From: a virus
Strand: one strand, 5' to 3'
DNA: 64,000 nt
Virus record (IMG/VR): IMGVR_UViG_3300033143_005193
Span: 1-64,000 of that record
Part shown: positions 5,530 to 25,890 of the stretch, in pieces
Numbering within the stretch: the first letter of the stretch is position 1
Layout: each line of letters opens with the position of its first letter
Translations under genes and position numbers: made by a program
The notes under the pieces: model-generated
What the model saw: only the letters and a program-made list of their open reading frames with translations
Told to the model about the DNA's origin: nothing
Databases searched by the model: none

Positions 5530-5541
5530 ATAACTGGCTTA

Positions 5542-6609: not shown

Positions 6610-6630
6610 AATTGTAAAAAAACTACAAAA

Positions 6631-6677
6631 ATACAAAGATGAAAATAATATCTTTTATTATAAAGTAAAGTGTGAAT
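6631..6677 (+). repeat. 47-bp direct repeat of 5577-5623 (2 mismatches)
   Basis: ATACAAAGATGAAAATAATATCTTTTATTATAAA(A/G)TAAA(A/G)TGTGAAT at both sites. Confidence 0.9.
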
Positions 6678-6705
6678 TATAATAAAAAGAAAGAGAAATA
6701 ATAAA

Positions 6706-7206
6706 ATGAAACTTAGAAAATATCTTAAAAATATTTATCATATAGAAATGATAGAAGAAGGTTTTTCTATTCCTATGAAAAATAAAGAAAAATATAAAAA
6801 ACTAAATCCAAAAACAAATAGAACTAAAACATATAAAAAAACAAAATATATAAAAACAGATATACCACCTGAAAAAAGAGATTTTGATAATATACCAAAA
6901 TACGCTGATGGTAGTTTCAAAGTAAGATTTCAAGATTGGCTGGAAATTGATACAAGTAAATCACCAGGAAAAAACTGGGGATGGTCAAAAAATGGAAAAT
7001 GTTATGGGTGGAGTCATAGAGCTGTATATGGTTTTAAAATTGGTGATGAAATTAAAGGTGATAGTTTAGGTAAAAAAGTAATATATCCAAAACTTCAAGA
7101 TGGTTCTTTTGATTTTGACAATGGAAAATTTGAACCAGATTTTGTTATTAAAACAAACAAACAAGCAGAAGAAGTCGCCAAAACATTTGCTGAAAATGTT
7201 GCATAA
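6706..7206 (+). CDS. Hypothetical protein, putative internal protein
   Basis: MKLRKYLK...MIEE N-terminus; GWSHRA motif. Confidence 0.6.
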   Translation: MKLRKYLKNIYHIEMIEEGFSIPMKNKEKYKKLNPKTNRTKTYKKTKYIKTDIPPEKRDFDNIPKYADGSFKVRFQDWLEIDTSKSPGKNWGWSKNGKCYGWSHRAVYGFKIGDEIKGDSLGKKVIYPKLQDGSFDFDNGKFEPDFVIKTNKQAEEVAKTFAENVA

Positions 7207-7220
7207 TAAAGAGGAATAAA

Positions 7221-7526
7221 ATGAAACTTAAAAAACATTTAATGAACGAGGCTCCTATCCAAACAAAGGGATGGACAAAACAATCCTTAGAAAAATTTGG
7301 TAAAACAATAGGTAAAATGCCTGATGAAAAAGGTTTTTTTGAAGTATGTGTAAATGAAATGAAAAACAAAGATGGTTTTAATGAAGAAAAAGCTAAAGGA
7401 TTTTGTGCCGCTATAAAAGATCGTCACTATAACAGCCCAATGTGGCGAGGAGCTAATAAAACAAAAAAAGAAATTGAACAGGATATAAAGAAAAAAAAAT
7501 TTAAAAAATCTTTACCAGAAAAATAA
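7221..7526 (+). CDS. Hypothetical protein, putative internal protein
   Basis: MKLKKHLMNE N-terminus; GAGGA RBS. Confidence 0.6.
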   Translation: MKLKKHLMNEAPIQTKGWTKQSLEKFGKTIGKMPDEKGFFEVCVNEMKNKDGFNEEKAKGFCAAIKDRHYNSPMWRGANKTKKEIEQDIKKKKFKKSLPEK

Positions 7527-7589
7527 TTATAAATAAAAAATATAAATAATACCAAGATGTAAAAATAAAAATTTGGAGGTGAAATCAGT

Positions 7590-7826
7590 ATGCAACTTTT
7601 TCTAGCAATCGTTAATCTTATCCCAAGCATTATTAAAATTATCACAGCTATCGAAGAAACATTTCCTCAATCCGGCATTGGTGAACAAAAACTTCAATTA
7701 GTTAAAGACATTTTAACCGAAGCTTACACTAATGTAAATGAAATATGGGGAAGTATTGAAAAAATTATTTCTGTTATAGTGTCTTTTGCTAATAAAATTG
7801 GTGCCTTCACTAAGTCATCAGATTAA
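7590..7826 (+). CDS. Small late protein, holin-like (LL-H type)
   Basis: Hydrophobic N-terminus then IEETF...GEQKLQLV; TATAAATA at 7528 and 7541; GGAGGTG RBS. Confidence 0.4.
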   Translation: MQLFLAIVNLIPSIIKIITAIEETFPQSGIGEQKLQLVKDILTEAYTNVNEIWGSIEKIISVIVSFANKIGAFTKSSD

Positions 7827-7852
7827 ATAACCACTAAAAACAGAACCACAAT

Positions 7853-7882
7853 AAAAAAGGTGGTATAAAAGCCACCTTTTTT
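7853..7882. terminator. Bidirectional intrinsic terminator
   Basis: AAAAAAGGTGG-tataaaag-CCACCTTTTTT between convergent genes. Confidence 0.85.
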
Positions 7883-7905
7883 ATATCCAAAGAATTATAT
7901 AATTT

Positions 7906-8772
7906 TTACTTAAAAAATGGATTACCAACTAATATATTATCTCTTAACAAATGAGTCTTACCCATTGGTTCCAAAAGAAATTCTATCTTTTTTATAAAGA
8001 ATTTATCTATCATCTTATTATAATCAATATCCACAACTTCATTAAATTCCTTTGGCCATCTATAAAATGTAATTGTTTCTATATTATATGGATTATCCTT
8101 TATATATAAAACCTTAGCTTTCATTGATTCATGAATATCTTCATAAAGATTTTCTATACCTAATTCTTTTAAAAGATAATTATAATTTGCAACACCTTTA
8201 ACGTGCCAAGGTGTTGATTTTATTGGTCTTCCATCTACTATATATTTTGAAAGATTGTTTATTCCAATATTAGCGGCTATTTCTTCTGGTGAAACTTTTT
8301 TTAATTCTTTCTTATATTGATTTATTTTCTTCACTAATTCCTTTTCATCAACATTTTTAAGAATCATATTCATTATAATTTTAAGTTTTTCTCTTATAGC
8401 TTCAGCACTATCAGATCTAACAATTTCAAGCCCTGTTACTGAAATCTTATCTACCGGTACACCTTCTTCATCAATACAATGATAAGCATATTTCTTTTTC
8501 TTAATAAAAAGAGCAGATTTTGCAATAATTTCTTGCTTTAGTTTTATCTTAAAATCTTCCACAACGGAATTATAATCAAGTTTTTGTGTTTCATTGAAAA
8601 TTCTATCATTTACATATTTTTCTATTTCTTTTGAAATTTTTCTAATATATTCAATCTTTTTTTCATCAGATAAACATATCCATTTATCTTTATTAGATAT
8701 ATTATCTAGTATAAATTTCTCAACACCAATATAACAACTATCAGTATCTCCATACAAAACATAATCATTCAT
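7906..8772 (-). CDS. Family B DNA polymerase, C-terminal subunit (gp43B-like)
   Basis: YGDTDS motif C, KKKYA, TGLEIVRSD; own GAGGA RBS. Confidence 0.92.
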   Translation of the reverse strand: MNDYVLYGDTDSCYIGVEKFILDNISNKDKWICLSDEKKIEYIRKISKEIEKYVNDRIFNETQKLDYNSVVEDFKIKLKQEIIAKSALFIKKKKYAYHCIDEEGVPVDKISVTGLEIVRSDSAEAIREKLKIIMNMILKNVDEKELVKKINQYKKELKKVSPEEIAANIGINNLSKYIVDGRPIKSTPWHVKGVANYNYLLKELGIENLYEDIHESMKAKVLYIKDNPYNIETITFYRWPKEFNEVVDIDYNKMIDKFFIKKIEFLLEPMGKTHLLRDNILVGNPFFK

Positions 8773-8820
8773 TGATAAATTCCTCTAATATTTTTAAACA
8801 TTTATCCTTTCATTAACATT

Positions 8821-10575
8821 TTAATCTATTTCATTTATAATATTTTTTATACTTTCTACTTTATCTATATTATTCAACATTTCATTGATAAAATTTTCAG
8901 TTTGTCGTATTGTTCTACGGCCACAACTTGTAATGGCTTCAGCAATATTTGTATTAAAATATCTTGAGTATGGAACAGAAGTAATACCAAATACAGCATT
9001 AAGAACGATCTTAATACTCCATTGTTTTGCAAATAATTGAGCAACTCTTTTATCTTTTGAATTTTTTCTTTTTATTTCCTTCATTTTATTTTTAGTTTCA
9101 ACTCTTTTATTAAAATATTCTCTCAAGACTCTAACTATAATACCTTCTTTTGTGTTGTTAAAAACCGAACCACAAGGAGCAATGGAAACCATTTTCTTTT
9201 CTACCATAAGATTGAATTTTTTTAACATTTTATTTTTAAATTCAATCCTATCACCGTTTATTTTATACATATTAAATGGAGGAAAATTATTATTCCGTGT
9301 ATAATATATAACCATATCTTCCGTTATACCAACAATTCTACCAACATAAGTTTCTGTTGACATATTAAGACAAATCATGTGTGAAGGATATGAGCTTGTT
9401 AAATCAACTGAAGAAACCCATTTATACATTCCCTTTTGTGGTTCTTTAACATAAGCAGCTTCAAAACCTTTTTGAGTACCACCTTCAAAAAACGGAGCAC
9501 ATAAATTATTTCTTCTATAATGTGTTAAAAGAGCACCTTCTATCAATTGTGTCATAGCATTATAATACTTCATCGGGCATTTTGTTAAAAGTGAAAGAGA
9601 TTGAACCAAATTTATATAACCTAATTTATTTTCTAACTGATTTACTCTTTCACAGTCAATAATGTTATATTCAACATATTTGTCATAATTTCCATTATAT
9701 AATTCATTAAGATTTTTATATTCAGAATAATCTAATTTACCTTCTTCAAGCTCTGTTTTAGAAACAAAATCAAGAGTATAACTTTCAAGTTTCTTTGGTG
9801 AATACCATCTATACAAATCATAATAATCAAGAATAGTTATACCAGCAATATCAATATTCATTGAATTATCTAATTTTGATCTCCATGTTCTAACAATATT
9901 AATTGGTGAAAGTTTATTATATTCATTTTCACCAACTATTTTAATCGAACGATTTATAATATATGGTAAGTCAAATAAAAAAATATTATAACCTGATATA
10001 ACATCAACACTACACTTATGAAAAAATGAAAGAAATTTCTTTATTAAAGAATACTCATCTTTACAATAAATGAACTTAACATTTTTCATTCTACCAGTAT
10101 ACGGTTTAGAACCAAATGTATAAGTTTTTCCTGTAGATCCATTTCTAATGGAAATAAGAGAAATTGGATCATTGGCGTCTTCTGGTTTTGGGAAACCATC
10201 ATAAGCTGCAACTTCAATATCTAAATAATAAATAGATAAATCAGGAACTTCTAAATCATCATCAGGAATAGTATGATATCTTTCAGATAAAAATTGAATT
10301 TCAGGTTTTACTTTATTTTCAAATATATCATATCTATCTTTAACAAAATCATAATAATCATTATAAGTATCAAAATCTCTTTTTACAACAGAAACACCAT
10401 TAAGTGTTTTGATATTACCTTTTTTACTCTTTAGAAAAACATAAGGCGTCCAGGGAATTTCAGTATAAAGGTTTTTACCATTCACTTGTTCCCATAAATG
10501 AATTTTACTCTTTTTTGTGTTATAAAAACAATTTTTAAAAATTTTTATCACCTCTCTTTCCATTATTATCTTCAT
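8821..10575 (-). CDS. Family B DNA polymerase, N-terminal subunit (gp43A-like: exonuclease, motifs A and B)
   Basis: DIEV ExoI, GYNIFLFD ExoII, YNIID ExoIII, DLTSSYPS motif A, KIVLNAVFG motif B. Confidence 0.92.
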   Translation of the reverse strand: MKIIMEREVIKIFKNCFYNTKKSKIHLWEQVNGKNLYTEIPWTPYVFLKSKKGNIKTLNGVSVVKRDFDTYNDYYDFVKDRYDIFENKVKPEIQFLSERYHTIPDDDLEVPDLSIYYLDIEVAAYDGFPKPEDANDPISLISIRNGSTGKTYTFGSKPYTGRMKNVKFIYCKDEYSLIKKFLSFFHKCSVDVISGYNIFLFDLPYIINRSIKIVGENEYNKLSPINIVRTWRSKLDNSMNIDIAGITILDYYDLYRWYSPKKLESYTLDFVSKTELEEGKLDYSEYKNLNELYNGNYDKYVEYNIIDCERVNQLENKLGYINLVQSLSLLTKCPMKYYNAMTQLIEGALLTHYRRNNLCAPFFEGGTQKGFEAAYVKEPQKGMYKWVSSVDLTSSYPSHMICLNMSTETYVGRIVGITEDMVIYYTRNNNFPPFNMYKINGDRIEFKNKMLKKFNLMVEKKMVSIAPCGSVFNNTKEGIIVRVLREYFNKRVETKNKMKEIKRKNSKDKRVAQLFAKQWSIKIVLNAVFGITSVPYSRYFNTNIAEAITSCGRRTIRQTENFINEMLNNIDKVESIKNIINEID

Positions 10576-10656: not shown

Positions 10657-11463
10657 ATGGGTAAATTTATTAGATATTTAGATGAATCAATAGTTATAGA
10701 AAAAAAGATTGGTTATATGATAACAAAAAATTGTCAACCATTTCTTAAAGAAATAAAACAACATAATATCAAAAAATTCATTTATAGAGGAACTTACAAA
10801 AGGATTAATGATATAAAAAAAATAATACCAAGAAAAAATAGAAAACCAAAAGATATGTCACCAGATTTACAGAAATTATTTGATGAATTTTTCTATGAAA
10901 AATTTAGATGGAGACCGAGAAGCGAAGGAGTATTTACTATAGGAGATATAAAATCAATAAGAGGCATTTACGGGACACCATATATTTTTGTCCCAATTGG
11001 AGAATATGAATATTTATGGAGCCCTGATGTGGATGATCTTTATGAAGAAACCGATTGTGAAGACTATAGTGATGAATTTGATGATTTTGGTTTGGAAGAT
11101 GACTGGGAAAATAGATATGGTGAAGAAGAAAATGGAACATGGGAATATGACGGCGAACCATTAAATATACGTAATAAACATGAAGCTATAGAATATATAG
11201 AAAATGAAATTGATGAAAATTTTAATCCATCAAAACTTAAATGGATACCTGAAATGTCATATGAAGAATTTTATAATGAAACTAAAGAAGAATTTGAAGA
11301 AAAAAAAGAATATTTAATTAAAAATATTGTAGATAGTTACTTAGATACAGAATTATTAAGAAAAGCAATAAACAAAAAACATGAAATAATGTTTAAATGT
11401 GATTCCTATTATTTAATAAACGGGGAATACGAAGATTATTTAAAAACGTTTATGTTTGGATAA
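10657..11463 (+). CDS. ADP-ribosyltransferase-like paralogue 1 (acidic insert)
   Basis: IYRG...EGVFT...YG.PYIF...HEIMF; MGKFIRYLDE N-terminus. Confidence 0.5.
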   Translation: MGKFIRYLDESIVIEKKIGYMITKNCQPFLKEIKQHNIKKFIYRGTYKRINDIKKIIPRKNRKPKDMSPDLQKLFDEFFYEKFRWRPRSEGVFTIGDIKSIRGIYGTPYIFVPIGEYEYLWSPDVDDLYEETDCEDYSDEFDDFGLEDDWENRYGEEENGTWEYDGEPLNIRNKHEAIEYIENEIDENFNPSKLKWIPEMSYEEFYNETKEEFEEKKEYLIKNIVDSYLDTELLRKAINKKHEIMFKCDSYYLINGEYEDYLKTFMFG

Positions 11464-11469
11464 AAAACA

Positions 11470-12327
11470 ATGACAAAACTATACGAATATTTAAAAAAAG
11501 ATGAAAGTATCTTTCTTAATAAATTAAGTAAAGATATTCAGAAAAATTGTCAACCATTTATCAAAGAATTTAAATCATCTAATGTAAAATATTTTTTATA
11601 TAGAGCAACTAAAAAAAACATAAAATTCTATGATAAAATAATTCCAAGAAAAGATAGAAAACCAAGAGACACACCACTTCATATTCATAAATTAATTGAT
11701 GATATATTTAAGGATAAATTTGGATGGAAACCAAGAAGTGAAGGTGTATTTGTTAATCCTAATAAAACCGTAATATCAGAATATGGTAATGCTTATATTT
11801 TCATTCCAATAGGAAAATATGAATACTTATGGTCACCTAAAATAGATGATTTATATAATGAAATTAAATTAACAATAAGACTTAAATGCAATCTTCCAAT
11901 AAAAGAAATAACATTTGAAAAATTTAAAAACATTGATAAATTCAAAATAGAATATGAAAAATATAAAGAACCCGAATCTCTTGGTGGTTCCTGGTGGTAT
12001 AAAAACATAGACACAGGATATACTAAAAAATATAATGCAATAGATTATTTAAAAAAATTCAAAAATATTAAAGAAGATGAAATGGAAATATATATGTCAG
12101 ATGATTTTAGATGGATTCCAAAAATGACATTTGAAAAATTCATAGAAAAAAAATACAGAGAACTAATGAAAACAATTGAAAAAATTATAAAAGAAAAAGC
12201 AGAAACATATAAAACAAATAATTTAAAAGAACTGGTTTTAACTATTAATGAAGCAATGTTCAAATGTAATTCCTATTATCTTATAAATCCTAATTTTTTT
12301 GAAAAATTAAAAAATAATTTATTTTAA
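11470..12327 (+). CDS. ADP-ribosyltransferase-like paralogue 2
   Basis: LYRA...EGVFV...YG.AYIF...NEAMF; clear paralogue of 10657. Confidence 0.5.
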   Translation: MTKLYEYLKKDESIFLNKLSKDIQKNCQPFIKEFKSSNVKYFLYRATKKNIKFYDKIIPRKDRKPRDTPLHIHKLIDDIFKDKFGWKPRSEGVFVNPNKTVISEYGNAYIFIPIGKYEYLWSPKIDDLYNEIKLTIRLKCNLPIKEITFEKFKNIDKFKIEYEKYKEPESLGGSWWYKNIDTGYTKKYNAIDYLKKFKNIKEDEMEIYMSDDFRWIPKMTFEKFIEKKYRELMKTIEKIIKEKAETYKTNNLKELVLTINEAMFKCNSYYLINPNFFEKLKNNLF

Positions 12328-12876: not shown

Positions 12877-13224
12877 CTATTTCTCCATATTATTATAAAG
12901 ATTTACCATACAATCCATACAACCTTCACAAGCCTTTTTATAGTTCTTTTCATTAAAACAAAATGATGAATCATCTACATCCCATGAAATATTCAAACAA
13001 TGATTAAAATTATTCATTTCAACGTCATAACCATAAACATGACTCAAAACATCAGCAATTCTCTTTCCATATAAATCATAAATTTCTCTATTTTTAAATT
13101 TATAAACAGTAGAAAATGAACCATTTTCTGACTTTATAAGATTATCAATTTCTTTAAAAATATCTTCAATAACATCTTCTTTATACTCCATTGATCTTTT
13201 AAATGCTTCTTTTGCTGTCAACAT
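12877..13224 (-). CDS. Hypothetical early protein
   Basis: AGGAG RBS and consensus promoter upstream. Confidence 0.65.
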   Translation of the reverse strand: MLTAKEAFKRSMEYKEDVIEDIFKEIDNLIKSENGSFSTVYKFKNREIYDLYGKRIADVLSHVYGYDVEMNNFNHCLNISWDVDDSSFCFNEKNYKKACEGCMDCMVNLYNNMEK

Positions 13225-13276
13225 TTTTTCAATCTCCTTTGTAATTAATTATGTAATATCTTTTTTTATAAAAATA

Positions 13277-13305
13277 ATTATACCAAATAATTCTTTTAAT
13301 GTCAA
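13277..13305 (-). promoter_or_regulatory. Consensus sigma70 promoter
   Basis: TTGACA-17-TATAAT. Confidence 0.85.
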
Positions 13306-13318
13306 CATGTAATTCTAA

Positions 13319-14419
13319 TTATTCATGTTTCTTCAACAAAAATGAACAAAAATCACCAGCATACACTTTAACTAAATTTAAATCATTTTTTACTCGTGTT
13401 GGTGTTAATCTATATTCTCTATCACCCAAACCCAATTGACCATAAACATTATTACCAAAAGCATATAATTCACCTAAATCATTTATAGCTAATGAATGAT
13501 ATCCACTACAAACTATTTCTTTCCAATTTGATTCGCTTCCTATTCGTATTGGTATTAATCTATCTTCTTCATCACCTAAGCCTAATTGACCACAATAATT
13601 ATCACCCCAGGCATACAATTCACCATTATCATTAATAGCCAATGAATGATATCTTCCACAAGCAATTTTCTTCCAATTAGATTCGCTTTCTATTTTTGTT
13701 GGTGTTAATTCATCTCCTTCATCACCTAAACCCAACTGACCACAATCATTATTACCACAGGCATACAATTTACCTAAATCATTGATAGCTAATGAATGAT
13801 ATCTTCCACAAGCAATTTTCTTCCAATTTGAATCATTCCCTACTTGTATTGGTGTTGATCTATATTCTCTATTATCTAATCCTAATTGACCATGAATATT
13901 ATCACCCCAAGCATATAATTCACCAGTATCATTGATTGCTAATGAATAACACCAACCACAAGATATTTTAACCCAATTTGATTCGCTTCCTACTCGTGTT
14001 AGTGTTAATCTATTTTCCTCATCACCTAAACCCAATTGACCACAATCATTATTACCACAAGCATATAATTCACCTAAATCATTGATAGCTAATGAATGAT
14101 ATCCACCACAAGCTATTTCTTTCCAATTTGATTCATTTCCTACACGTGTTGGTGTTAATCTATCTTCTTCATCACCTAAGCCCAACTGACCACAATCATT
14201 ATAACCCCAAGAATACAATTCACCACGATTATTAATAGCTAATGAATAATCATAACCACAAGCTATTTTAATTACACTATCAACGCTACCAAGTAATGTT
14301 AATTGCAATATATTTGGAAGACCTTCTAAATTCAATCTATACCCACAAGCATATAAATCATAAATGGTTTCATTGTCAGATCTATCCAAAATTTCATTTG
14401 TTTTATAATACAATGTCAT
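13319..14419 (-). CDS. RCC1-repeat beta-propeller protein, copy 8
   Basis: 50-aa repeats GELYAWGxNxxGQLGLG...IACGxxHSLAI. Confidence 0.95.
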   Translation of the reverse strand: MTLYYKTNEILDRSDNETIYDLYACGYRLNLEGLPNILQLTLLGSVDSVIKIACGYDYSLAINNRGELYSWGYNDCGQLGLGDEEDRLTPTRVGNESNWKEIACGGYHSLAINDLGELYACGNNDCGQLGLGDEENRLTLTRVGSESNWVKISCGWCYSLAINDTGELYAWGDNIHGQLGLDNREYRSTPIQVGNDSNWKKIACGRYHSLAINDLGKLYACGNNDCGQLGLGDEGDELTPTKIESESNWKKIACGRYHSLAINDNGELYAWGDNYCGQLGLGDEEDRLIPIRIGSESNWKEIVCSGYHSLAINDLGELYAFGNNVYGQLGLGDREYRLTPTRVKNDLNLVKVYAGDFCSFLLKKHE

Positions 14420-14431
14420 CTTTATTCACCT

Positions 14432-15502
14432 TTATTCATGCTTTTTCAACAAAAAGGAACAAAAATCACCAGCATACACTTCTACCCAATTTGAATTGCT
14501 TCCTACTCGTATTGGTGTTAATCTATTTTCTTTATCACCTAATCCTAATTGACCACGAGTATTATTACCCCAAGCATATAATTCACCATCATCATTAATA
14601 GCTAATGAATGTGACCTACCACAAGCAATTTTTTTCCAGTTTGATTCATTTCCTATTCGTGTTGGCTCTGATCTATCTATTTCATCACCAGATCCCAATT
14701 GACCATTATAATTACGACCCCAAGCATACAATTCACCTAAATCATCAATGGCTAATGAACAATATTTTCCACAAGTTATTTTAACCCAATTTGAATTATT
14801 CCCTACCCTTGTTGGTGTTAATCTATTTTCATTATCACCCAAACCTAATTCACCATCACCATTATAACCCCAAGCATATAATTCACCTAAATCATTGATT
14901 GCTAATGAATGATATCCACCACAAGCAATTTCTTTCCAATTTGATTCGCTTCCTACTTGTGTTGGTTCTAATCTATTTTCCTCATCACCTAAACCCAATT
15001 GACCATCACCATTATAACCCCAAGCATACAATTCACCCAAATCATTAATAGCTAATGAATGACTCCCACCACAAGCAATTTTCTTCCAATTTGAATTATT
15101 CCCTACTTGTGTTGGTTCTGATTTATATTCTCTATTATCTAATCCTAATTGACCATGAATATTATACCCCCAAGTGTATAATTCACCACGATCATTGATA
15201 GCCAATGAATGATATCCACCACAAGCTATTTCTTTCCAATTTGATTCATTCCCAACCCGTGATATTATATTATCTTTACTATCATAATTCAAAGTATATA
15301 ATTCACCACGATTATTAATAGCTAACAAATGATAATTACCATAAAATATTTTAATTACACCATTAATACTACCAAGTAATATTAATTTTGACCCAAAAAA
15401 TAAACCTTTTAAATTCAATTTACACCCACAAGCATATAAATCATAAATGGTTTCATTGTCAGATCTATCCAAAATTTCATTTATTTTATAATACAATGAC
15501 AT
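14432..15502 (-). CDS. RCC1-repeat protein, copy 7
   Basis: Same repeats; first full blade shortened. Confidence 0.95.
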   Translation of the reverse strand: MSLYYKINEILDRSDNETIYDLYACGCKLNLKGLFFGSKLILLGSINGVIKIFYGNYHLLAINNRGELYTLNYDSKDNIISRVGNESNWKEIACGGYHSLAINDRGELYTWGYNIHGQLGLDNREYKSEPTQVGNNSNWKKIACGGSHSLAINDLGELYAWGYNGDGQLGLGDEENRLEPTQVGSESNWKEIACGGYHSLAINDLGELYAWGYNGDGELGLGDNENRLTPTRVGNNSNWVKITCGKYCSLAIDDLGELYAWGRNYNGQLGSGDEIDRSEPTRIGNESNWKKIACGRSHSLAINDDGELYAWGNNTRGQLGLGDKENRLTPIRVGSNSNWVEVYAGDFCSFLLKKHE

Positions 15503-15514
15503 TTTTATTTACCT

Positions 15515-16618
15515 TTATTCATGTTTTTTCAACAAAAATGAACAAAAACCACCAGCATACACTTCTTTCCAATTCAAACTATTTCCTACCTGTATTGGTA
15601 TTGATCTATTTATTTCATCACCTAATCCTAATTGACCATGAGTATTATTGCCCCAAGCATACAATTCACCATCATCATTAATAGCTAATGAATGACACAA
15701 CCCACAAGATATTTTTTTCCAATTTGAATCACTTCCAACTCGCGTTGGTATTAATTTGTTTTCATTATCACCTAAGCCTAATTGACCATCGCCATTATAA
15801 CCCCAAGCATATAATTCACCATGATTATCAATAGCCAATGAATGATCATAACCACAAGCTATTTCTTTCCAATTTGATTCATTTTCTATCCGTGTTGGTG
15901 TTAATCTATTTTTCCTATTATCCAATCCTAATTGACCATAATAATTACGACCCCAAGCATACAATTCACCTAAATCATTGATAGCTAATGAATGGTATCT
16001 TCCACAAGCTATTTTAATCCAATTTGATTCATTTCCAACTTGTGTTGGTTCTAATCTATTTAAAATATCACCTAATCCTAATTGACCACAATAATTATCA
16101 CCCCAAGCATACAATTCACCATGATCATTGATAGCTAATGAATAATATCCTCCACAAGCAATTTCTTTTCAATTTGAATTATTCCCTACCCTTGTTGGTG
16201 TTAATCTATTTTCATTATCACCCAAACCTAATTCACCATCACAATTATAACCCCAAGCATATAATTCACCTAAATCATTGATAGATAATGAATGGTATCC
16301 ACCACAAGCAATTTCTTTCCAATTTGATTCATTTTCTACACGTGTTGGTTCTAATCTATCTTCTTCATCACACAATACCAATTGACCACAATCATTATAA
16401 CCCCAAGAATACAATTCACCACGATTATTAATAGCCAATGAATGAAATATACCACAAGCTATTTTAATTACATTATTAACGCTACCAAGTAGCAACGTTA
16501 ATTGTGATGTATCTGGAAAACCATTTAAATTTAATTTATACCCACAAGCATACAAATCATAAATGGTTTCATTGTCAAATTTATTCAAAATTTCATTTGT
16601 TTTATAATACAATGACAT
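15515..16618 (-). pseudogene. RCC1-repeat protein, copy 6, interrupted by one in-frame TGA
   Basis: ORFs 16169-16618 and 15515-16114 share a frame; TGA at 16169-16171 replaces the conserved Trp (NSN*KEIACG). Confidence 0.85.
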
Positions 16619-16632
16619 TTTCTTATTTACCT

Positions 16633-17733
16633 TTATTCATGCTTCTTCAACAAAAATGAACAAAAATCACCAGCATATATTTTGATCCAATTTGATTCAC
16701 TTCCTACTCGTGTTGGTGTTGATCTATTTTCATTATCACCTAATCCCAATTGACCACAATCATTATGACCCCAGTCATATAATTCACCACGATCATTAAT
16801 AGCTAATGAATGATCATAACCACAAGCTATTTTTTTCCAATTAGATTCATTTCCAACTCGTATTTGTTCTAATCTATCTTCTTCATCACCTAAACCTAAT
16901 TGACCATAATAATTATTACCACAAGCATACAATTCACCATAATTATTAATAGCCAATGAATGATCATAACCACAAACTATTTCTTTCCAATTTGAATTAT
17001 TTCCTACTCGTGTTGGTATTAATCTATTTTTCCTATTATCCAATCCTAATTGACCATGATAATTACGACCCCAAGCATACAATTCACCACAATCATTAAT
17101 AGCTAATGAATAATATCCACCACAAGATACATTAACCCAATTTGAATCATTCCCCACCCTTGTTGGTGTTAATCTATCCATTCTATTACCTAAGCCTAAT
17201 TGACCATAACTATTATAACCCCAAGCATACAATTCACCACGATCATTAATAGCCAATGAATGATATCCACCACAAACTATTTTAACCCAATTTGATTCAT
17301 TCCCTACTCGCGTTGGTGTTAATCTATCTATTCTATTACCTAAGCCTAATTGACCATAACCATTATAACCCCAAGAATATAATTCACCCAAATCATTAAT
17401 AGCTAACGAATAACACCACCCACAATCTATTTCTTTCCAATTTGATTCGCTTCCTACTCGTGTTGGTGTTAATCTATTTACTATATTACAAAGACCCAAT
17501 TGACCATAACCATTATAACCCCAAGAATATAATTCACCAGTATCATTAATAGCTAAAAAATGACTACCATTACAAGCTATTTTAATTACATTATCAACGC
17601 TACCGAGTAATGTTAATTGTGATATATTTGGAAAACCATTTAAATTTAATTTATACCCACAAGCATATAAATCATAAATGGTTTCATTGTCAGATCTATC
17701 CAAAATTTCATTTGTTTTATAATACAATGACAT
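16633..17733 (-). CDS. RCC1-repeat protein, copy 5
   Basis: 366 aa, same repeats. Confidence 0.95.
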   Translation of the reverse strand: MSLYYKTNEILDRSDNETIYDLYACGYKLNLNGFPNISQLTLLGSVDNVIKIACNGSHFLAINDTGELYSWGYNGYGQLGLCNIVNRLTPTRVGSESNWKEIDCGWCYSLAINDLGELYSWGYNGYGQLGLGNRIDRLTPTRVGNESNWVKIVCGGYHSLAINDRGELYAWGYNSYGQLGLGNRMDRLTPTRVGNDSNWVNVSCGGYYSLAINDCGELYAWGRNYHGQLGLDNRKNRLIPTRVGNNSNWKEIVCGYDHSLAINNYGELYACGNNYYGQLGLGDEEDRLEQIRVGNESNWKKIACGYDHSLAINDRGELYDWGHNDCGQLGLGDNENRSTPTRVGSESNWIKIYAGDFCSFLLKKHE

Positions 17734-17747
17734 TTTCTTATTTACCT

Positions 17748-18848
17748 TTATTCATGCTTTTTCAACAAAAATGAACAAAAATCACCAGCATATATTTTGA
17801 TCCAATTTGATTCACTTCCTACTCGTGTTAGTGTTGATCTATATTCTCTATCACCAAGACCCAATTGACCACATTCATTATGACCACAAGAATATAATTC
17901 ACCACTGTCATTAATAACTAACGAATGACATAACCCACAAGCTATTTTTTTCCAATTAGATTCATTTCCAACTCGTGTTAGTGTTGATCTATTTACTATA
18001 TCACCTAATCCTAATTGACTATAATAATTACTACCACAAGCATATAATTCACCTAAATCATTTATAGCTAATGAATAATATCTTCCACAAGCAATTTTCT
18101 TCCAATTTGAATTATTCCCTACTCGTGTTGGTGTTGATCTATTTTCATTATCACCCAATCCCAATTGACCATAATTATTATCACCCCAAGCATGTAATTC
18201 ACCACGATTATTAATAGCCAATGAATGAACTGAACCGCAAGCTACTTTAACCCAATTCGAACTATTTCCTACTTGTGTTGGTTCTAATCTATTTACTGTA
18301 TCACCAAGACCCAATTGACCATAATAATTACTACCCCAAGCATACAATTCACCAGTATCATTGATTGCTAATAAATGATATCTTCCACAAAATATATCAA
18401 CCCAATTTGATTCATTCCCTACTCGCGTTGGTGTTAATCTATTTACTGCATCACCAAGACCCAATTGACCATAACCATTATAACCCCAAGCATATAATTC
18501 ACCAATATTATTAATAGCTAATGAATGACTCCCACCACAAGATATTTCTCTCCAATTTGAATTATTTCCTACCCGCATTGGTGTTGATCTATTTACTATA
18601 TTACCAAGACCCAATTGACCATAACCATTATAACCCCAAGCATACAATTCACCATCATCATTAATAGCTAAAAAATGACTACCATTACAAGCTATTTTAA
18701 TTACATTATCAACACTACCAAGTAACGTTAATTGTGATGTATCTGGAAGACCATTTAAATTTAATTTATATCCACAAGCATACAAATCATAAATAGTTTC
18801 ATTATCAAATTTATTCAAAATTTCATTTGTTTTATAATATAATGACAT
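17748..18848 (-). CDS. RCC1-repeat protein, copy 4
   Basis: 366 aa, same repeats. Confidence 0.95.
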   Translation of the reverse strand: MSLYYKTNEILNKFDNETIYDLYACGYKLNLNGLPDTSQLTLLGSVDNVIKIACNGSHFLAINDDGELYAWGYNGYGQLGLGNIVNRSTPMRVGNNSNWREISCGGSHSLAINNIGELYAWGYNGYGQLGLGDAVNRLTPTRVGNESNWVDIFCGRYHLLAINDTGELYAWGSNYYGQLGLGDTVNRLEPTQVGNSSNWVKVACGSVHSLAINNRGELHAWGDNNYGQLGLGDNENRSTPTRVGNNSNWKKIACGRYYSLAINDLGELYACGSNYYSQLGLGDIVNRSTLTRVGNESNWKKIACGLCHSLVINDSGELYSCGHNECGQLGLGDREYRSTLTRVGSESNWIKIYAGDFCSFLLKKHE

Positions 18849-18860
18849 CTTTATCCGCCT

Positions 18861-19961
18861 TTATTCATGATTTTTCAACAAAAATGAACAAAAATCACCA
18901 GCATATATACAGACCCAATTTGATTCATTTCCTACTCGCGTTGGTATTAATCTATATTCTCTATCACCCAAACCCAATTGACCATAATTATTATCACCCC
19001 AAGTATATAATTCACCTAAATCATTAATAGATAATGAATGACACAACCCACAAGCTATTTTTTTCCAATTAGATTCATTTCCAACTCGTGTTGATATTGA
19101 TCTATTTTTCCTATCATCCAATCCCAATTGACCATAATAATTATCACCAAAAGCATATAATTCACCACGATCATTAATGGCTAATGAATGATTATAACCA
19201 CAAGCTATTTCTTTCCAATTTAATTCACTTCCTGTTCGTGTTGGTATCGATCTATTTTTCCTATCATCCAATCCCAATTGACCATAATAATTATCACCAA
19301 AAGCATACAATTCACCACGATCATTAATGGCTAATGAATGAAACCAACCACAAGATATTTTAACCCAATTTGATTCGCTTCCTACTCGTGTTGGTGTTAA
19401 TCTATCTTCTTTATCACCTAAACCCAATAGACCACAATCATTATAACCCCAAGTATATAATTCACCTAAATCATTTATAGCTAATGAATGATATCTTCCA
19501 CAAGCTATTTTAACCCAATTCAAACTATTTCCAACTCGTGTTGGTGTTAATCTATATTCTCTATCACCCAAACCCAATTGACCATAATAATTACGACCCC
19601 AAGCATATAATTCACCATGATTATTAATAGCTAATGAATAACACCAACCACAAGATATTTTAACCCAATTTGATTCACTTCCTACTCGTGTTGGTGTTGA
19701 TCTATTTTCTTTGTCACCTAATCCTAATTGACCGTAAGTGTTTTCACCACAAACATATAATTTACCAGAACCATCGATAGTTAATAAATGGTTACTACTA
19801 AAAGATATTTTAATCATGTTATTAATACTACCAATTAATGTTAATCCTGGTATAAAATATAAATCTTCTGGATTCAATTCATACCCACAAGCATATAAAT
19901 CATAAATGGTTTCATTATTAGATCTATCCAAAATTTCATTTGTTTTATAATACAATGTCAT
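18861..19961 (-). CDS. RCC1-repeat protein, copy 3
   Basis: 366 aa, same repeats. Confidence 0.95.
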   Translation of the reverse strand: MTLYYKTNEILDRSNNETIYDLYACGYELNPEDLYFIPGLTLIGSINNMIKISFSSNHLLTIDGSGKLYVCGENTYGQLGLGDKENRSTPTRVGSESNWVKISCGWCYSLAINNHGELYAWGRNYYGQLGLGDREYRLTPTRVGNSLNWVKIACGRYHSLAINDLGELYTWGYNDCGLLGLGDKEDRLTPTRVGSESNWVKISCGWFHSLAINDRGELYAFGDNYYGQLGLDDRKNRSIPTRTGSELNWKEIACGYNHSLAINDRGELYAFGDNYYGQLGLDDRKNRSISTRVGNESNWKKIACGLCHSLSINDLGELYTWGDNNYGQLGLGDREYRLIPTRVGNESNWVCIYAGDFCSFLLKNHE

Positions 19962-19973
19962 CTTTATTCACCT

Positions 19974-21077
19974 TTATTCATGCTTTTTCAACAAAAAGGA
20001 ACAAAAATCACCGGCATGTACTCCTACCCAATTTGATTCATTTCCTACTCGTGTTAGTGTTAATCTATTTATTTCATCACCTAAGCCTAATTGACCATAA
20101 ACATTATTACCAAAAGCATATAATTCACCACGATCATTAATAGCTAATGAATGACACACCCCACAAGATATTTTAATCCAATTTGATTTATTCCCTACTC
20201 GTGTTGGTAATAATCTTCTTTCTGTATCACCCAAACCTAACTGACCATCACCATTATAACCCCAAGCATATAATTCATCACTATCATTAATAGCTAATGA
20301 ATAATATTTTCCACAAGATATATTAACCCAATTTGATTCAATTCCTACCCTTGTTGGTGTTAACCTATCTTTCCTATCACCTAATCCTAATTGACCATAA
20401 TAATTACGACCCCAAGCATACAATTCACCACAATCATTAATAGCTAATGAATAATATCCACCACAAGATGCATTAACCCAATTTGAATCATTCCCCACCC
20501 TTGTTGGTGTTAATCTATCCATTCTATTACCTAAGCCTAATTGACCATAACTATTATAACCCCAAGCATACAATTCACCATTATTATTGATAGCCAATGA
20601 ATGATATCTTCCACAAAATACATCAACCCAATTTGAATCATTCCCTATTCTTGTTGGTGTTGATCTATCTTCTTTATCACCCAAACCTAACTGACCACAA
20701 TCATTATAACCCCAAGCATATAATTCACCATTATTATTGATAGCCAAAAAATAACACCACCCACAAGCTATTTCTTTCCAATTTGATTCACTTCCTATTC
20801 GTGTTGGTTCCGATCTATCTATTTTATCACCCAAACCCAATTGACCAAAAACATTATAACCACAAGCATATAATTCACCATGATTGTTTATTGCTAACGA
20901 ATTACTACTATTACAAGCTATTTTAATTACATTATCAATACTACCAAGTAGCGTTAATTGTAATATATCTGAAAAACCTTCTAAATTCAATTTAGATCCA
21001 CAAGCATACAAATCATAAATGGTTTCATTATTAAATCTATCCAATATTTCATTTGTTTTATACATTTTCTTATTCAC
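19974..21077 (-). CDS. RCC1-repeat protein, copy 2
   Basis: Same repeats; real start may be the downstream MYKTNE. Confidence 0.95.
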   Translation of the reverse strand: MNKKMYKTNEILDRFNNETIYDLYACGSKLNLEGFSDILQLTLLGSIDNVIKIACNSSNSLAINNHGELYACGYNVFGQLGLGDKIDRSEPTRIGSESNWKEIACGWCYFLAINNNGELYAWGYNDCGQLGLGDKEDRSTPTRIGNDSNWVDVFCGRYHSLAINNNGELYAWGYNSYGQLGLGNRMDRLTPTRVGNDSNWVNASCGGYYSLAINDCGELYAWGRNYYGQLGLGDRKDRLTPTRVGIESNWVNISCGKYYSLAINDSDELYAWGYNGDGQLGLGDTERRLLPTRVGNKSNWIKISCGVCHSLAINDRGELYAFGNNVYGQLGLGDEINRLTLTRVGNESNWVGVHAGDFCSFLLKKHE

Positions 21078-21079
21078 CT

Positions 21080-21880
21080 TTATTCATGCTTTTTCAACAA
21101 AAAAGAACAAAAATCACCAGCATATATTTCGACCCAATTTGATTCATTTCCTACTCGTGTTAGTGTTGATCTATTTTCTTTATCATCTAATCCCAACTGA
21201 CCATGATTATTATGACCACAGGCATACAACCCACCACGATCATTAATAGCTAACGAATGATTATAACCACAAGATATTTCTTTCCAATTTGATTCATTTC
21301 TAACTTGTGTTGGTTCTAATCTATTTAAAATATCACCTAAGCCTAATTGACCTTTATCATTATCACCCCAAGCATACAATTCACCACGATCATTAATAGC
21401 CAATAAATGATATTCACCACAAGCTATTTTTCTCCAATTTGAATCATTCCCTATTCGTGTTGGTTCTAATCTATTTAAAATATCACCTAAGCCTAATTGA
21501 CCATAATAATTATCACCCCAAGAATATAATTCACCACGATCATTAATAGCCAATGAATGATATCTTCCACAAAACACATCAACCCAATTTGAATCATTTC
21601 CTATTCTTATTAGTATTAATCTATTTACTGTATCACCAAGACCCAATTGACCATAACCATTATAACCACAAGAATATAATTCACCACGATCATTTATTGC
21701 TAATGAATTACTACTATTACAAGCTATTTTAATTACATTATTAACGCTACCGAGTAATGTTAATTGAGATCCAAAAAACAAATCCTGAGAATTTAATTTA
21801 TACCCACAAGCATACAAATCATAAATGGTTTCATTATTAGATCTATCCAAAATTTCATTTGTTTTATAACACAATAACAT
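21080..21880 (-). CDS. RCC1-repeat protein, copy 1 (266 aa, two blades fewer)
   Basis: Start reassigned to MLLCYKTNE (ATG 21880) by homology with paralogues; a promoter lies inside the longer ORF call. Confidence 0.9.
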   Translation of the reverse strand: MLLCYKTNEILDRSNNETIYDLYACGYKLNSQDLFFGSQLTLLGSVNNVIKIACNSSNSLAINDRGELYSCGYNGYGQLGLGDTVNRLILIRIGNDSNWVDVFCGRYHSLAINDRGELYSWGDNYYGQLGLGDILNRLEPTRIGNDSNWRKIACGEYHLLAINDRGELYAWGDNDKGQLGLGDILNRLEPTQVRNESNWKEISCGYNHSLAINDRGGLYACGHNNHGQLGLDDKENRSTLTRVGNESNWVEIYAGDFCSFLLKKHE

Positions 21881-21914
21881 TTTTTCAAAATACCCTTCGA
21901 TATATTTTTTCAAT

Positions 21915-21943
21915 ATTATACTATAAAACATGAAAAAAGTAAA
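21915..21943 (-). promoter_or_regulatory. Sigma70-type early promoter of the RCC1 operon
   Basis: TTTACT-17-TATAAT. Confidence 0.7.
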
Positions 21944-21993: not shown

Positions 21994-22455
21994 ATGTTCA
22001 AAAAAATCTTTTCAACTTTTTTATTAAAACCATTATTGGTTTGGATTGCAAAAAAGACTGATAATTATAAAACCATTATCGGATTGATTGGTTCTGTTTT
22101 TGTAATTATAGGTTATATAATAAATTATATGTATCCAGAAGTTACAAAATCAATCACACCGCTATTAACAGAAGATAAAATTAATGAAATACTGAATATA
22201 ATGCTTTTAATTTTCGGTGGTACAACAGTTGGTGGTGTTACTCATAAGATTGTAAAAACCCAAAAAGAAATTAAAAAAGTTTCTGATATAAAAGAAGATC
22301 TAAATGAAATCAAACAAGAAATAAAGAAGCAAAAACAAATAGAAGAAGATATTAAATTAGATAAAGTAACAAGAGAATTAGAACATCTTAAAGAAATCAT
22401 ACAAAATAACAAAGGAACAATAACATCAAATTACAATGATTACGAACAACATTGA
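21994..22455 (+). CDS. Membrane protein (2 TM plus coiled coil), holin-like
   Basis: Two hydrophobic segments; AGGAGG RBS. Confidence 0.55.
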   Translation: MFKKIFSTFLLKPLLVWIAKKTDNYKTIIGLIGSVFVIIGYIINYMYPEVTKSITPLLTEDKINEILNIMLLIFGGTTVGGVTHKIVKTQKEIKKVSDIKEDLNEIKQEIKKQKQIEEDIKLDKVTRELEHLKEIIQNNKGTITSNYNDYEQH

Positions 22456-22595: not shown

Positions 22596-22626
22596 AAAAA
22601 ACCACTCTTTTAAAGAGTGGTTTTTT
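22596..22626. terminator. Bidirectional intrinsic terminator
   Basis: AAAAAACCACTCTTT-t-AAAGAGTGGTTTTTT between convergent genes. Confidence 0.85.
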
Positions 22627-23680: not shown

Positions 23681-24166
23681 CTATTTTTTATTTAATTGTT
23701 TATATTTCAACCGTAGTTGATCCATAAGCTTTGCTTTTTCTTCTTCTTCCTCACTCATCCGCCAATTTTCAGCGTCCAGATCATCAGCAAATTCACAAGT
23801 TATATTCTGAGCAACCGCCAATATATCAATAAAATCATCATCCTGGTCATATTCCCTTGAACCAAATAAATTATTAAAAAAATAATTATTAATTCTTCCG
23901 TTTTTTCGTTCACCCAATTTCAATACATCCGGTATAGATATAAGAACATTATGTATTTTTTTGGTCATAGTAAAAAGATCAACTTCCGCTGTTCCAAACT
24001 TATCAAACTTATAAGGGATTCGATTATAAAATTCTTTCAAAATCTTTTCCAGATTATCAGGTACAATATACGGTGACTGTATCACCAACCATTTAGCCAA
24101 AGCTCCAGTAATATCTTTCTTTGAAAGCAATATTGTTCTGTTAAATCTTTCTTTTATACTATCCAT
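23681..24166 (-). CDS. Hypothetical protein
   Basis: 161-aa ORF with GAGGA RBS. Confidence 0.65.
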   Translation of the reverse strand: MDSIKERFNRTILLSKKDITGALAKWLVIQSPYIVPDNLEKILKEFYNRIPYKFDKFGTAEVDLFTMTKKIHNVLISIPDVLKLGERKNGRINNYFFNNLFGSREYDQDDDFIDILAVAQNITCEFADDLDAENWRMSEEEEEKAKLMDQLRLKYKQLNKK

Positions 24167-24614
24167 TGTATATCCTCTTATTTATTTTTTTTATCTTATT
24201 AAATATATCAGAAACAGTTTTACCACCAATATACATAGCAGCAAATTTTAGATTATTAAAAACAACGCCTCCATTACGATCAACCATTTTAGCCACAGCC
24301 ATAAGTGATTTCCATTGTCCTTCTGAAAAACGTAAATCTTCATCACATGATAATATCACTAAAATTGTTTTATCTGGTCTTTTATTGCTATCATCGATAA
24401 CTTCAGCAATAGAATAAACTCCTGTCATTTTTGGTGTAATTGTATAAAGAACAAAATCACAAGTTTCACGTTCTTTAATTTCACGCACCATACACTCTTC
24501 TGTCCAATCAGGAACAACAGGATTAAACCATTTACATCCTTCTTCGCGTAAATAAATTATCATTTTATCACGCCAGATACTATCATAAGTTCCACCAAGA
24601 AATACTTTTTTCAT
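24159..24614 (-). CDS. Nucleoside 2-deoxyribosyltransferase-like protein
   Basis: KVFLGGT...WRD...FNPVVPDW...E...CD...GVYSIAE. Confidence 0.75.
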   Translation of the reverse strand: MKKVFLGGTYDSIWRDKMIIYLREEGCKWFNPVVPDWTEECMVREIKERETCDFVLYTITPKMTGVYSIAEVIDDSNKRPDKTILVILSCDEDLRFSEGQWKSLMAVAKMVDRNGGVVFNNLKFAAMYIGGKTVSDIFNKIKKINKRIYNG

Positions 24615-24672
24615 TTTATTATTATATCCTTCTTTTCGTAATAATCAAAACAAACGTAATCATCTATCCTCA

Positions 24673-24807
24673 TTAATCCAGAAAACTATCAATAGATAAA
24701 CCAATAATTGCCATTATAATGAAAAGAAAAAACAACACAAAGCTAACCACAACCCAACCCAAAGATCCCTTCAAAAAAATCATAGCACATTCTAATATAA
24801 AGTCCAT
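24673..24807 (-). CDS. 44-aa membrane protein (MDFILECAMIFLKG...)
   Basis: Manual translation; AGGAG RBS. Confidence 0.65.
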   Translation of the reverse strand: MDFILECAMIFLKGSLGWVVVSFVLFFLFIIMAIIGLSIDSFLD

Positions 24808-24851
24808 TATTCTTGCTCCTTTCAATATTTTATTCTACACTTACAATATCA

Positions 24852-25052
24852 TTATGCTGTTTTTAATGTTTCTGGTTTATATTCAGAGCAAAGATGAACC
24901 CCCAAAATTGTATAAACACAGTTTTGCTTCGAATCCCAATCTCTTGAAAAATCATGTAAATTTTTATTTCTTGTGATTACCCAATTGCTACATTTACCTT
25001 GTATATTCCAGTAACAATTATTTACACCTGATTTTAATTCTATCCCATACAT
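24852..25052 (-). CDS. Small Cys-containing hypothetical protein
   Basis: GGAG RBS; four Cys. Confidence 0.55.
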   Translation of the reverse strand: MYGIELKSGVNNCYWNIQGKCSNWVITRNKNLHDFSRDWDSKQNCVYTILGVHLCSEYKPETLKTA

Positions 25053-25062
25053 GATTTCTCCA

Positions 25063-25890
25063 TTAATGATTATTATTCTTCACTACATTTTTTCCAATAA
25101 TCAAGAGTTCTTTATAATCTCCACGAAACTTCTTATTTGCTGAAATCAAACTTTTACGACAAACAAAATGTATCTCAAATTCATTTTCATATAATTCTAT
25201 AATGCTTTTATGGTGAGCATTTGTAGATATAATAAAAGCACCACGTTCGGATGCTTTTTTTAAACAATTTGATAAGCGAACCTGATCATCCCAAGAAAAC
25301 AATTTCTCGTTATACTTAATAAACGGATTACTACAATATTTAACAGTATAAGGCGGATCTACAAAAATCAAATCACCAGATGAAGCATCGTTAATTACTT
25401 CTTCAAAATCACAAGATTTTAGTTTCGCTTTCTTTAGTAATTTAGATATACCTTCAAAATCATCCTTTTTAAAAATAATATTTTTTCGATTACCACCATA
25501 CGGTACGTTAAATTCTCCCTTACGATTAACACGATATATCCCGTTAAAACAAGTTCTATTCAAATAAATAAAACGAGCAGCTCTTTCTACAAGAGATTCA
25601 GGCACAGAAGACCTTATAGTACAATAATAATCACTTGAATTGTTCTTTGCATGATAATTAAGAATTTCTGCAACTTTTTGCCAATCATCTCTGATTGCAA
25701 TATATGTATCTATAAGTTCAGTATTAATATCATTAAGAATGGCACAATCAGGAGCAAGATAAAAAAACACAGAACCACCGCCAAGAAATGGTTCTATATA
25801 CCTACCAGAAAATGAAGAAAAAATATCAGAATAACGTTTTATAAGCCAACGTTTTCCACCAGCCCATTTAAGAAATGGTGAAATACACAT
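25063..25890 (-). CDS. dam: DNA adenine methyltransferase, Dam/D12 family
   Basis: LKWAGGK, EPFLGGGSV, YLNRTCFNG.YRVN, FVDPPY. Confidence 0.92.
   Translation of the reverse strand: MCISPFLKWAGGKRWLIKRYSDIFSSFSGRYIEPFLGGGSVFFYLAPDCAILNDINTELIDTYIAIRDDWQKVAEILNYHAKNNSSDYYCTIRSSVPESLVERAARFIYLNRTCFNGIYRVNRKGEFNVPYGGNRKNIIFKKDDFEGISKLLKKAKLKSCDFEEVINDASSGDLIFVDPPYTVKYCSNPFIKYNEKLFSWDDQVRLSNCLKKASERGAFIISTNAHHKSIIELYENEFEIHFVCRKSLISANKKFRGDYKELLIIGKNVVKNNNH

Follow-up and report, generated by a model that had tools for sequence, protein, structure and literature searches.

The window analyzed here is the first 64 kb of a linear IMG/VR record of 110,776 bp (IMGVR_UViG_3300033143_005193; CheckV completeness 46%), and it contains, at 13319–21880 on the minus strand, eight head-to-tail RCC1 genes that form a mosaic, anciently diverged paralog family on an accessory cassette. 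The gene products are predicted to be standalone seven-blade propellers in which the scaffold and both termini are conserved and about ten positions per blade are hypervariable, a pattern that fits diversifying selection. The best-supported mechanism, which we advance tentatively, is that the array provides a repertoire of soluble binders that would act inside the cell on variable host proteins. Rak2-like jumbo phages were known before to carry tandem RCC1 arrays; what is new is the accessory status of the present array, a second array of five copies in another phage, the mosaicism, and the old divergence of the copies.

The window has a guanine-cytosine content of about 25% and codes for T4-like baseplate hub and wedge proteins, UvsX, an SbcC-like nuclease and a family-B DNA polymerase (PolB) that is only 30–32% identical to the polymerases of cyanophages and other T4-like phages. 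Judged from these genes, the record belongs to an uncultured, distant T4-like myophage. The array genes are denoted g1 to g8, from 21880 down to 13319, and the copies in the second phage c1 to c5.

Organization of the array

Each of the eight genes is matched by the Pfam RCC1 repeat (PF00415) with four to six repeats per gene and E values of 1e-57 to 1e-92, above the curated cut-offs, and the whole-domain model PF25390 scores 285–404 bits against a cut-off of 150. All 45 repeat matches in the 110.8-kb record lie within 13334–21685, and the blade repeat has a period of exactly 150 bp (45 copies). The spacers between genes measure 12–14 nt and have the form TAA-AGGTGAATAAAG-ATG. An earlier reading of the same DNA (the original prediction) had described 150-bp internal repeats, short conserved spacers and near-constant gene ends, all of which are borne out; both termini are under purifying selection, with non-synonymous diversity (pN) of 0.08–0.10 versus synonymous diversity (pS) of 0.18–0.29. 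The N-terminus, M(S/T)LYYKTNEIL..., about 19 residues long, is kept in 13 of 13 genes of the two phages and is found on no other protein of either record. No signal peptide is apparent, as judged from the hydrophilic N-terminus only, with no predictor run.

The original prediction had also counted eight tandem genes of about 1.11 kb. The array itself stands, on the minus strand, but intact seven-blade genes number six out of eight, the exceptions being g1, which retains five blades, and g6, in which an in-frame TGA takes the place of the tryptophan codon of an SNW motif (TGG to TGA). An alternative code that reads TGA as tryptophan is ruled out: seven other genes of the window stop at TGA, and the codon in g6 therefore reflects either a genuine nonsense mutation or an error in sequencing, and not recoding. 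It is probable that g6 is a pseudogene or a split gene. The GTG listed as the start of g2, at 21077, is probably wrong; the ATG start gives back the conserved 14-nt spacer.

The longest exact repeat inside the array is 110 nt, and contigs from another sample connect both flanks to RCC1 gene ends with 97–99.5% identity, which makes a gross assembly artefact unlikely. The same contigs (Logan) fragment inside the array into pieces of 150–430 nt, with many joints between paralogs, so that their support extends to the junctions of the array with its flanks and not to the inner gene order, the copy number or the TGA of g6. The sequencing runs listed for this DNA include none of RNA.

A near-identity DNA search over the phage collection gave no match to the array. 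With the g4 protein as query, the best match among 5.8 billion proteins was at most 53% identical, and the best in IMG/VR at most 42%. Metagenome scans by family-specific peptides and by the junction DNA pattern returned zero matches. A literature match for ‘RCC1’ was a false positive, the term denoting strain numbers of the Roscoff Culture Collection.

Fold of the array proteins

The AlphaFold2 model of g4 (predicted local distance difference test score, pLDDT, 92; predicted template-modeling score, pTM, 0.89) has 28 strands arranged as seven sets of four, with the last blade completed by the N-terminal strands and with residues 1–15 disordered; the peptide 1–19 is likewise predicted to be disordered. 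A Foldseek search with this model returned template-modeling (TM) scores of 0.83–0.88 to UVR8, the RCC1-like domains of HERC2 and HERC1, RPGR and RCC1. The models thereby support the assignment of the array genes as standalone RCC1-like seven-blade propellers. With blade numbering starting at strand A (KKIACG...), the strands of the g4 model comprise positions 1–6 (A), 9–14 (B), 19–23 (C) and 38–43 (D).

The array proteins share with the eukaryotic RCC1-like domains (UVR8, HERC2, RPGR and RCC1) a seven-blade fold closed by the two termini, however, the sequence identity is 22–30% and the array proteins have no extra domains. Nothing in them suggests guanine-nucleotide exchange activity; Ran and chromatin are absent from bacteria. 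BLIP-II from Streptomyces is a secreted seven-blade propeller that inhibits beta-lactamase via loops on one face. The array proteins may resemble it in concept, as small propellers binding through one-face loops, but they show no signal peptide, in contrast to the secreted BLIP-II, which does not appear in the top 50 structural matches to the g4 model.

For g1, the AlphaFold2 model (pLDDT 89.5) overlays five of the seven blades of seven-blade domains (query TM score, TMq, 0.82; root-mean-square deviation 2.4), which implies an open five-blade arc and not a closed five-blade ring, and makes its function doubtful. Either g1 is an open arc that requires a partner, or it is a dead copy.

Hypervariable positions and their location on the propeller

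The hypervariable positions of the blade are 7, 8, 16, 24, 26, 27, 35, 36, 37 and 47, with lesser variability at 1, 2 and 4. Synonymous diversity is alike across the blade, and non-synonymous diversity is concentrated, pN/pS being 1.75 at the variable positions versus 0.32 elsewhere. The original prediction had placed the variation in four motifs, WG-x-N-x-x-G, CG-x-x-(H/Y), IN-x-x-G and G-x-x-x-x-R, on a fixed scaffold, and had proposed a per-site comparison; run as pN/pS on blade positions, this comparison agrees with the motifs (positions 7, 8, 16, 24, 26, 27 and 35–37), and the result is repeated on the genes of the second phage.

Picking sites by amino-acid entropy is circular, and three checks were therefore run. 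With sites chosen on half of the genes and measured on the other half, pN/pS at variable positions is 1.2–2.1 versus 0.37–0.42 elsewhere. The pair c3–c4 of the second phage, which was unused in the choice of sites, differs at 72% of the variable residues versus 20% of the others (pN/pS 2.5 versus 0.34), and the orthologues g7 and c2 differ at 47% versus 15% (1.40 versus 0.33). When five non-overlapping sister pairs are pooled, pN/pS at the variable positions is 1.81 (one-sided binomial p 4e-4); between g4 and g5, the hypervariable codons hold 56.5 non-synonymous (Nd) and 0.5 synonymous (Sd) differences. The pattern fits diversifying selection.

In an antiparallel meander, the A–B and C–D loops lie on one face, and the B–C and D–A loops on the other. 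Variable positions were assigned to a face by this strand topology and by sequence alignment with UVR8, not by measured geometry. In the alignment, W285/R286 of UVR8 correspond to blade positions 7/8, D96 to 26, and D107 to 37, and these UVR8 residues form salt bridges of the dimer interface (PMC5091643). By this assignment, seven of the ten hypervariable positions would be located on a face through which UVR8 contacts proteins, and the variable loops of the array match the face that serves dimer, COP1 and RUP2 contacts in UVR8.

Two alternative explanations bear on the loop variability. One is that the array consists of repetitive DNA, decaying or selfish, that has no current function, the loop variability reflecting a lack of constraint; the premature stop in g6, the open ring of g1 with two blades missing, the dispensability of the array in a relative (see below) and a variable-site pN/pS not far above 1 would all be accommodated. 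However, six of the eight frames are intact, orthologues are kept in the second phage, and both the scaffold (pN/pS 0.32–0.42) and the termini have stayed conserved while synonymous sites diverged by about 0.3; we regard decay as highly improbable. Diversification of the loops by a diversity-generating retroelement is extremely improbable. The variable codons are mostly NNT, with changes in the first two positions, but NNT is expected from the AT-biased codon use, the variation is not limited to template-adenine sites, and synonymous differences occur throughout. This candidate was rejected, there being no match to reverse transcriptase (PF00078) in the 110.8-kb record, which is 46% complete.

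Paralog history and a second array

The paralogs are 65–78% identical in protein and 77–86% in DNA sequence, with a gene-wide ratio of non-synonymous to synonymous substitution rates (dN/dS) of 0.46–0.78 and a dS of 0.20–0.43 (about 0.3). When the 43 complete blades are stacked, DNA identity is 80.2% between blades of the same index and 78.5% between blades of different index, and only 16 of the 43 find their best match in a blade of their own index; one out-of-register pair, the second blade of g6 and the fourth of g7, reaches 97% identity. When runs of agreeing polymorphic sites were tested by permutation, p<0.05 was obtained for 14 of 15 gene pairs, six of which pass Bonferroni correction, and the strongest conversion pair is g2–g5 with an agreeing run of 42 sites and an identical tract of 110 nt. 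The out-of-register identity and the permutation test together show that the array is mosaic via gene conversion and unequal exchange.

Five tandem copies are present at 4492–10024 of another uncultured phage fragment (G001, L055; 67 kb, 28% complete), an array that was found only by the spacer DNA pattern search. A maximum-likelihood tree contains cross-phage orthologues, g7–c2 (100/100; 80% identical, with the same 10-residue deletion) and g3–c5 (98/97), as well as the within-phage sister pairs g4–g5, g6–g8 and c3–c4. On this tree, either the family was multi-copy before the lineages parted or arrays were exchanged, and members have been gained and lost since. The window record and the second fragment have only three other genes in common, at 29–45% identity; transfer of the cassette between the phages may have occurred.

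The second array follows a DUF932 gene and has the same orientation as gp44/62/45-like clamp-loader and clamp genes. Two of its members, c2 (5605–6687) and c4 (7803–8915), are without the usual TAA, run four codons into the spacer (…KKHENKGK), and end at a TAA that overlaps the ribosome-binding region of the following gene. Downstream of the array and the clamp genes, at 13984–16235, a ThiF (E1-like) gene stands beside a JAB-domain gene, and the two may work together in ubiquitin-like conjugation or deconjugation by the phage. At the start of the contig (294–1120) there are two open reading frames of short tandem peptide repeats that are proline-/glutamine-rich or of the form (S/N)LTEP(Y/H).

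The original prediction had envisaged an accordion-like expansion. Like the poxvirus accordions (K3L) and the giant-virus repeat families (F-box-RCC1, ankyrin), the array is a tandem expansion of a viral binding-protein family whose copy number varies among relatives; the copy number in related phages, which was to be compared, is eight here, five in the second phage and zero in a close relative. Unlike a poxvirus accordion, which is a transient amplification of near-identical copies, the array has old copies (dS about 0.3) with cross-phage orthologues. The array is thus better described as an old birth-and-death family, subject to gene conversion and carried on an accessory cassette, than as a recent accordion.

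The accessory cassette

A contig whose PolB is 86% identical to that of the window (L045) is syntenic on both sides of the array, but at the corresponding site the entire array is missing: homologues of 21994–22455 and 12877–13224 flank a single open reading frame of 123 residues. The array and both promoters constitute an accessory cassette, the ends of which are given by the breaks in homology to this relative (Table 1). The PolB genes themselves differ in organization, that of the window (7906–10575, minus strand) being divided into two open reading frames of 584 and 288 residues with 48 nt between them, and that of the relative being one gene of 850 residues.

An intrinsic-terminator-like hairpin closes the upstream minus-strand operon, and the hairpin together with a divergent gene parts the array from that operon, so that transcription of the array must depend on a promoter of its own. 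A sigma-70-like TTTACT-17-TATAAT is the candidate; it lies upstream of g1 in a divergent intergenic region of 113 nt, within the segment that is absent from the relative; the looser pattern TTTAC-N17-19-TATAAT occurs five times in the window versus 1.7 expected. The second promoter of the cassette, a TTGACA-17-TATAAT with a TG extension, is situated just past the g8 stop and faces the gene at 12877–13224. It is the only 12/12 promoter match in the 64 kb and has no counterpart promoter in the relative. The T4 late motif TATAAATA is not found between 10623 and 22927; one copy stands 35 nt upstream of the neighboring gene at 10657, which has a capsid-targeting-like N-terminus. With 33 copies found against 31 expected, the motif shows no enrichment across the window, and its lack near the array is therefore weak evidence.

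Table 1 Features of the RCC1 array and of its surroundings; positions are those of the window
Feature	Position	Strand	Remarks
g1	21080–21880	-	266 aa; exactly two 50-aa blades missing in frame, five left
g2	19974–21065	-	363 aa from ATG; N-terminus MYKTNEIL
g3	18861–19961	-	366 aa; orthologue of second-phage c5 (support 98/97)
g4	17748–18848	-	366 aa; copy used for main structure model
g5	16633–17733	-	366 aa; sister of g4
g6	15515–16618	-	366-aa frame if read through; in-frame TGA at 16169–16171
g7	14432–15502	-	356 aa; 10-aa deletion in blade 1; orthologue of c2
g8	13319–14419	-	366 aa; last gene of the array
Accessory cassette (array and both promoters)	~13235–21930	-	homology to relative L045 breaks at these ends
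Sigma-70-like promoter candidate, TTTACT-17-TATAAT	21915–21943	-	113-nt divergent intergenic region upstream of g1
Promoter TTGACA-17-TATAAT with TG extension	13277–13305	-	just past g8 stop, facing gene 12877–13224
Intrinsic-terminator-like hairpin	22596–22626	-	closes upstream minus-strand operon
Tad5-family Thoeris inhibitor homologue	23681–24166	-	161 aa; PF25190, E 5.5e-28, 98 bits versus cut-off 27
Deoxyribosyltransferase-like gene	24159–24614	-	beside Tad5-like gene
Dam methylase gene	25063–25890	-	same strand as Tad5-like gene

Genomic neighborhood and cellular location

In both phages the array stands among non-structural genes, outside the structural module. Upstream of the array, 1.8 kb away and on its strand, a homologue of Tad5-family Thoeris inhibitors is encoded, and with the adjacent deoxyribosyltransferase-like and Dam methylase genes it makes up a group (23681–25890) that looks like a counter-defense cluster. 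Tad5 is listed in a review among the Thoeris inhibitors that bind ThsB (PMC13728456). The mode proposed here for the array, direct binding of a defense protein, would be analogous to that of the ThsB binders Tad3 to Tad6, but the array proteins have no sequence or fold relation to them.

Paralog families that flank the array begin with M.(L/F)KN(Y/F)L.E, which resembles the T4 capsid-targeting peptide. When N-termini are compared with those of these neighbors, the RCC1 genes are without this sequence and without a T4-type targeting peptide, which has some 10 residues and ends in (L/I)xE, as the original prediction had held. One such neighboring family, phrog_11975, with N-termini such as MTKLYEYLKKDE, has two copies at 10657–12327 (plus strand) and four copies in L045 (4895–8030), so that the copy number of this family next to the array also varies between relatives.

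The paralogs contain 9–15 cysteines each (2.5–4.1%), compared with a median of 0.81% in 120 homologues and 0.3–1.6% in the tail proteins of the same phage, a composition that hints, weakly, at a reducing environment inside the cell.

Comparison with known phage RCC1 arrays

Tandem RCC1-like arrays have been described in Rak2-like jumbo phages, of which phAPEC6 carries eleven copies, 121Q thirteen and PBECO4 six, and we confirmed the phAPEC6 array in its GenBank record (gp001–010 and the gp549–551 region). These Rak2-like/Asteriusvirus arrays of RCC1-like ‘DNA condensation proteins’ (phAPEC6, 121Q_234–248, PBECO4 and GAP32 gp1) resemble the present one in that tandem standalone propellers of about 40 kDa are encoded by large myophages, and in that each family has its own conserved N-terminus. 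The differences are several. The paralogs of phAPEC6 are 25–35% identical to each other, whereas those of the window are 65–78% identical and mosaic; the Rak2-like leader MLPF(A/G)RM.KYGN is absent here, and the N-terminus of the window array is exclusive to its 13 genes; the phAPEC6 proteins match those of the window at the repeat level only. The phAPEC6 proteins have been seen in virions; unlike the Rak2-like arrays, the window array is missing from a close relative and lies amid non-structural and counter-defense genes.

The comparison nevertheless bears on an alternative, namely that the array proteins are virion-associated modules, either interchangeable adhesins docked by their N-termini or proteins that are packaged and ejected with the DNA, as has been proposed for the arrays of Rak2-like and Asteriusvirus jumbo phages. 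In the nearest published precedent, eight RCC1-like proteins of about 40 kDa (gp003, 005, 006, 007, 009, 010, 549 and 551) were identified in purified phAPEC6 virions (PMC7247149); gp1 of GAP32 is likewise structural. In other phages, RCC1 domains occur fused to tail-fibre proteins or are encoded next to them, and the nearest phage homologues, in phiCD211 and cyanophage S-SRM01, are in tail modules. The conserved N-terminal peptide of about 19 residues, present in every gene of two phages and modeled as disordered, could be a docking or loading signal, and the neighboring gene families look like packaged enzymes. Against this, the array is outside the structural module in both phages, no T4-type late motif is near it, no (Y/F)(L/I)xE capsid-targeting-like motif is present, the N-terminal peptide is not attached to any other fold in either record, the proteins are cysteine-rich, the close relative does without the array altogether, and the likeness to the phAPEC6 proteins is confined to the repeat level. 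We consider a place in the virion rather unlikely, yet it is the strongest of the alternatives.

A proposed repertoire of intracellular binders

The binder repertoire that we tentatively favor would operate as follows. An accessory cassette with its own promoter would encode a birth-and-death family of standalone seven-blade propellers, in which the scaffold and both termini stay constant. Rapid change would be confined to some ten loop positions of each blade, chiefly in the A–B loop and at both ends of the C–D loop, which together would make one face. The changes in the loops would come from point substitution and from gene conversion between blades and between genes. Each copy, expressed from a host-type promoter and presumably not late in infection, would be a soluble intracellular binder with its own specificity, and its targets would be variable host proteins, for instance components of defense systems or other targets of host takeover. 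A cytoplasmic counter-defense role is plausible, and is favored by the non-structural surroundings in both phages, by the Tad5-like and Dam methylase genes nearby, by the lack of a signal peptide, a capsid-targeting motif and a late-promoter motif, and by the high cysteine content.

Several observations weigh against this reading, beyond those from virions, tail modules and the N-terminal peptide. Only two of the five sister pairs are individually significant at the variable positions, and a pN/pS modestly above 1 also fits relaxed constraint on the loops combined with cassette exchange. The original prediction of a single variable face is sustained for seven of the ten positions, but topology assigns positions 16 and 47, and the start of strand A, to the opposite face. 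Likewise, the TTTACT-17-TATAAT that it had called an early promoter is present at 21943–21915, but the designation is not supported, the match (10/12) being statistically ordinary and sites of this kind showing no enrichment over shuffles in this DNA of 25% GC content (104 found, 127 expected). PADLOC gave no match, Pfam gives RCC1 families only for the array, and a literature search found no paper linking RCC1, phage and anti-defense. We know of no RCC1-fold protein that acts as an anti-defense factor.

Intracellular binding need not serve counter-defense. The proteins could be adaptors that recruit or sequester host housekeeping proteins or that organize phage machinery, such as the large glycan pathway coded elsewhere in the genome, and the evidence from fold, location and cysteine content applies equally to such a role, for which RCC1-like domains are suited as general protein–protein platforms (complexes of HERC2, RPGR and UVR8). 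A fast change of the binding face between orthologues, and the presence or absence of the array, suit an interface in conflict better, and we judge a role of this kind improbable. A bolder form of the binder repertoire, which we hold to be unlikely but somewhat less so than the adaptor role, would make the array a phage counterpart of an immune-receptor repertoire, in which more than 50 near-identical blades swap loop cassettes by gene conversion, so creating new binding faces against different host defense proteins, which they neutralize, and in which the cassette moves between divergent phages.

Implications

Large phages and giant viruses repeatedly carry RCC1 propeller genes in multiple copies, and the present array gives an unusually clear signal, with a frozen scaffold, a face that changes fast even between orthologues, exchange of blades, and presence or absence of the cassette as a whole. 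It yields small (about 40 kDa) soluble candidates with about ten defined positions per blade. If the proteins reside in the virion, the idea of swappable binding modules would reach from jumbo coliphages to a distant T4-like lineage. If they bind defense components, the RCC1 fold would join the scaffolds of phage counter-defense, and if the comparison with an immune repertoire were true, it would represent a new class of anti-defense protein.

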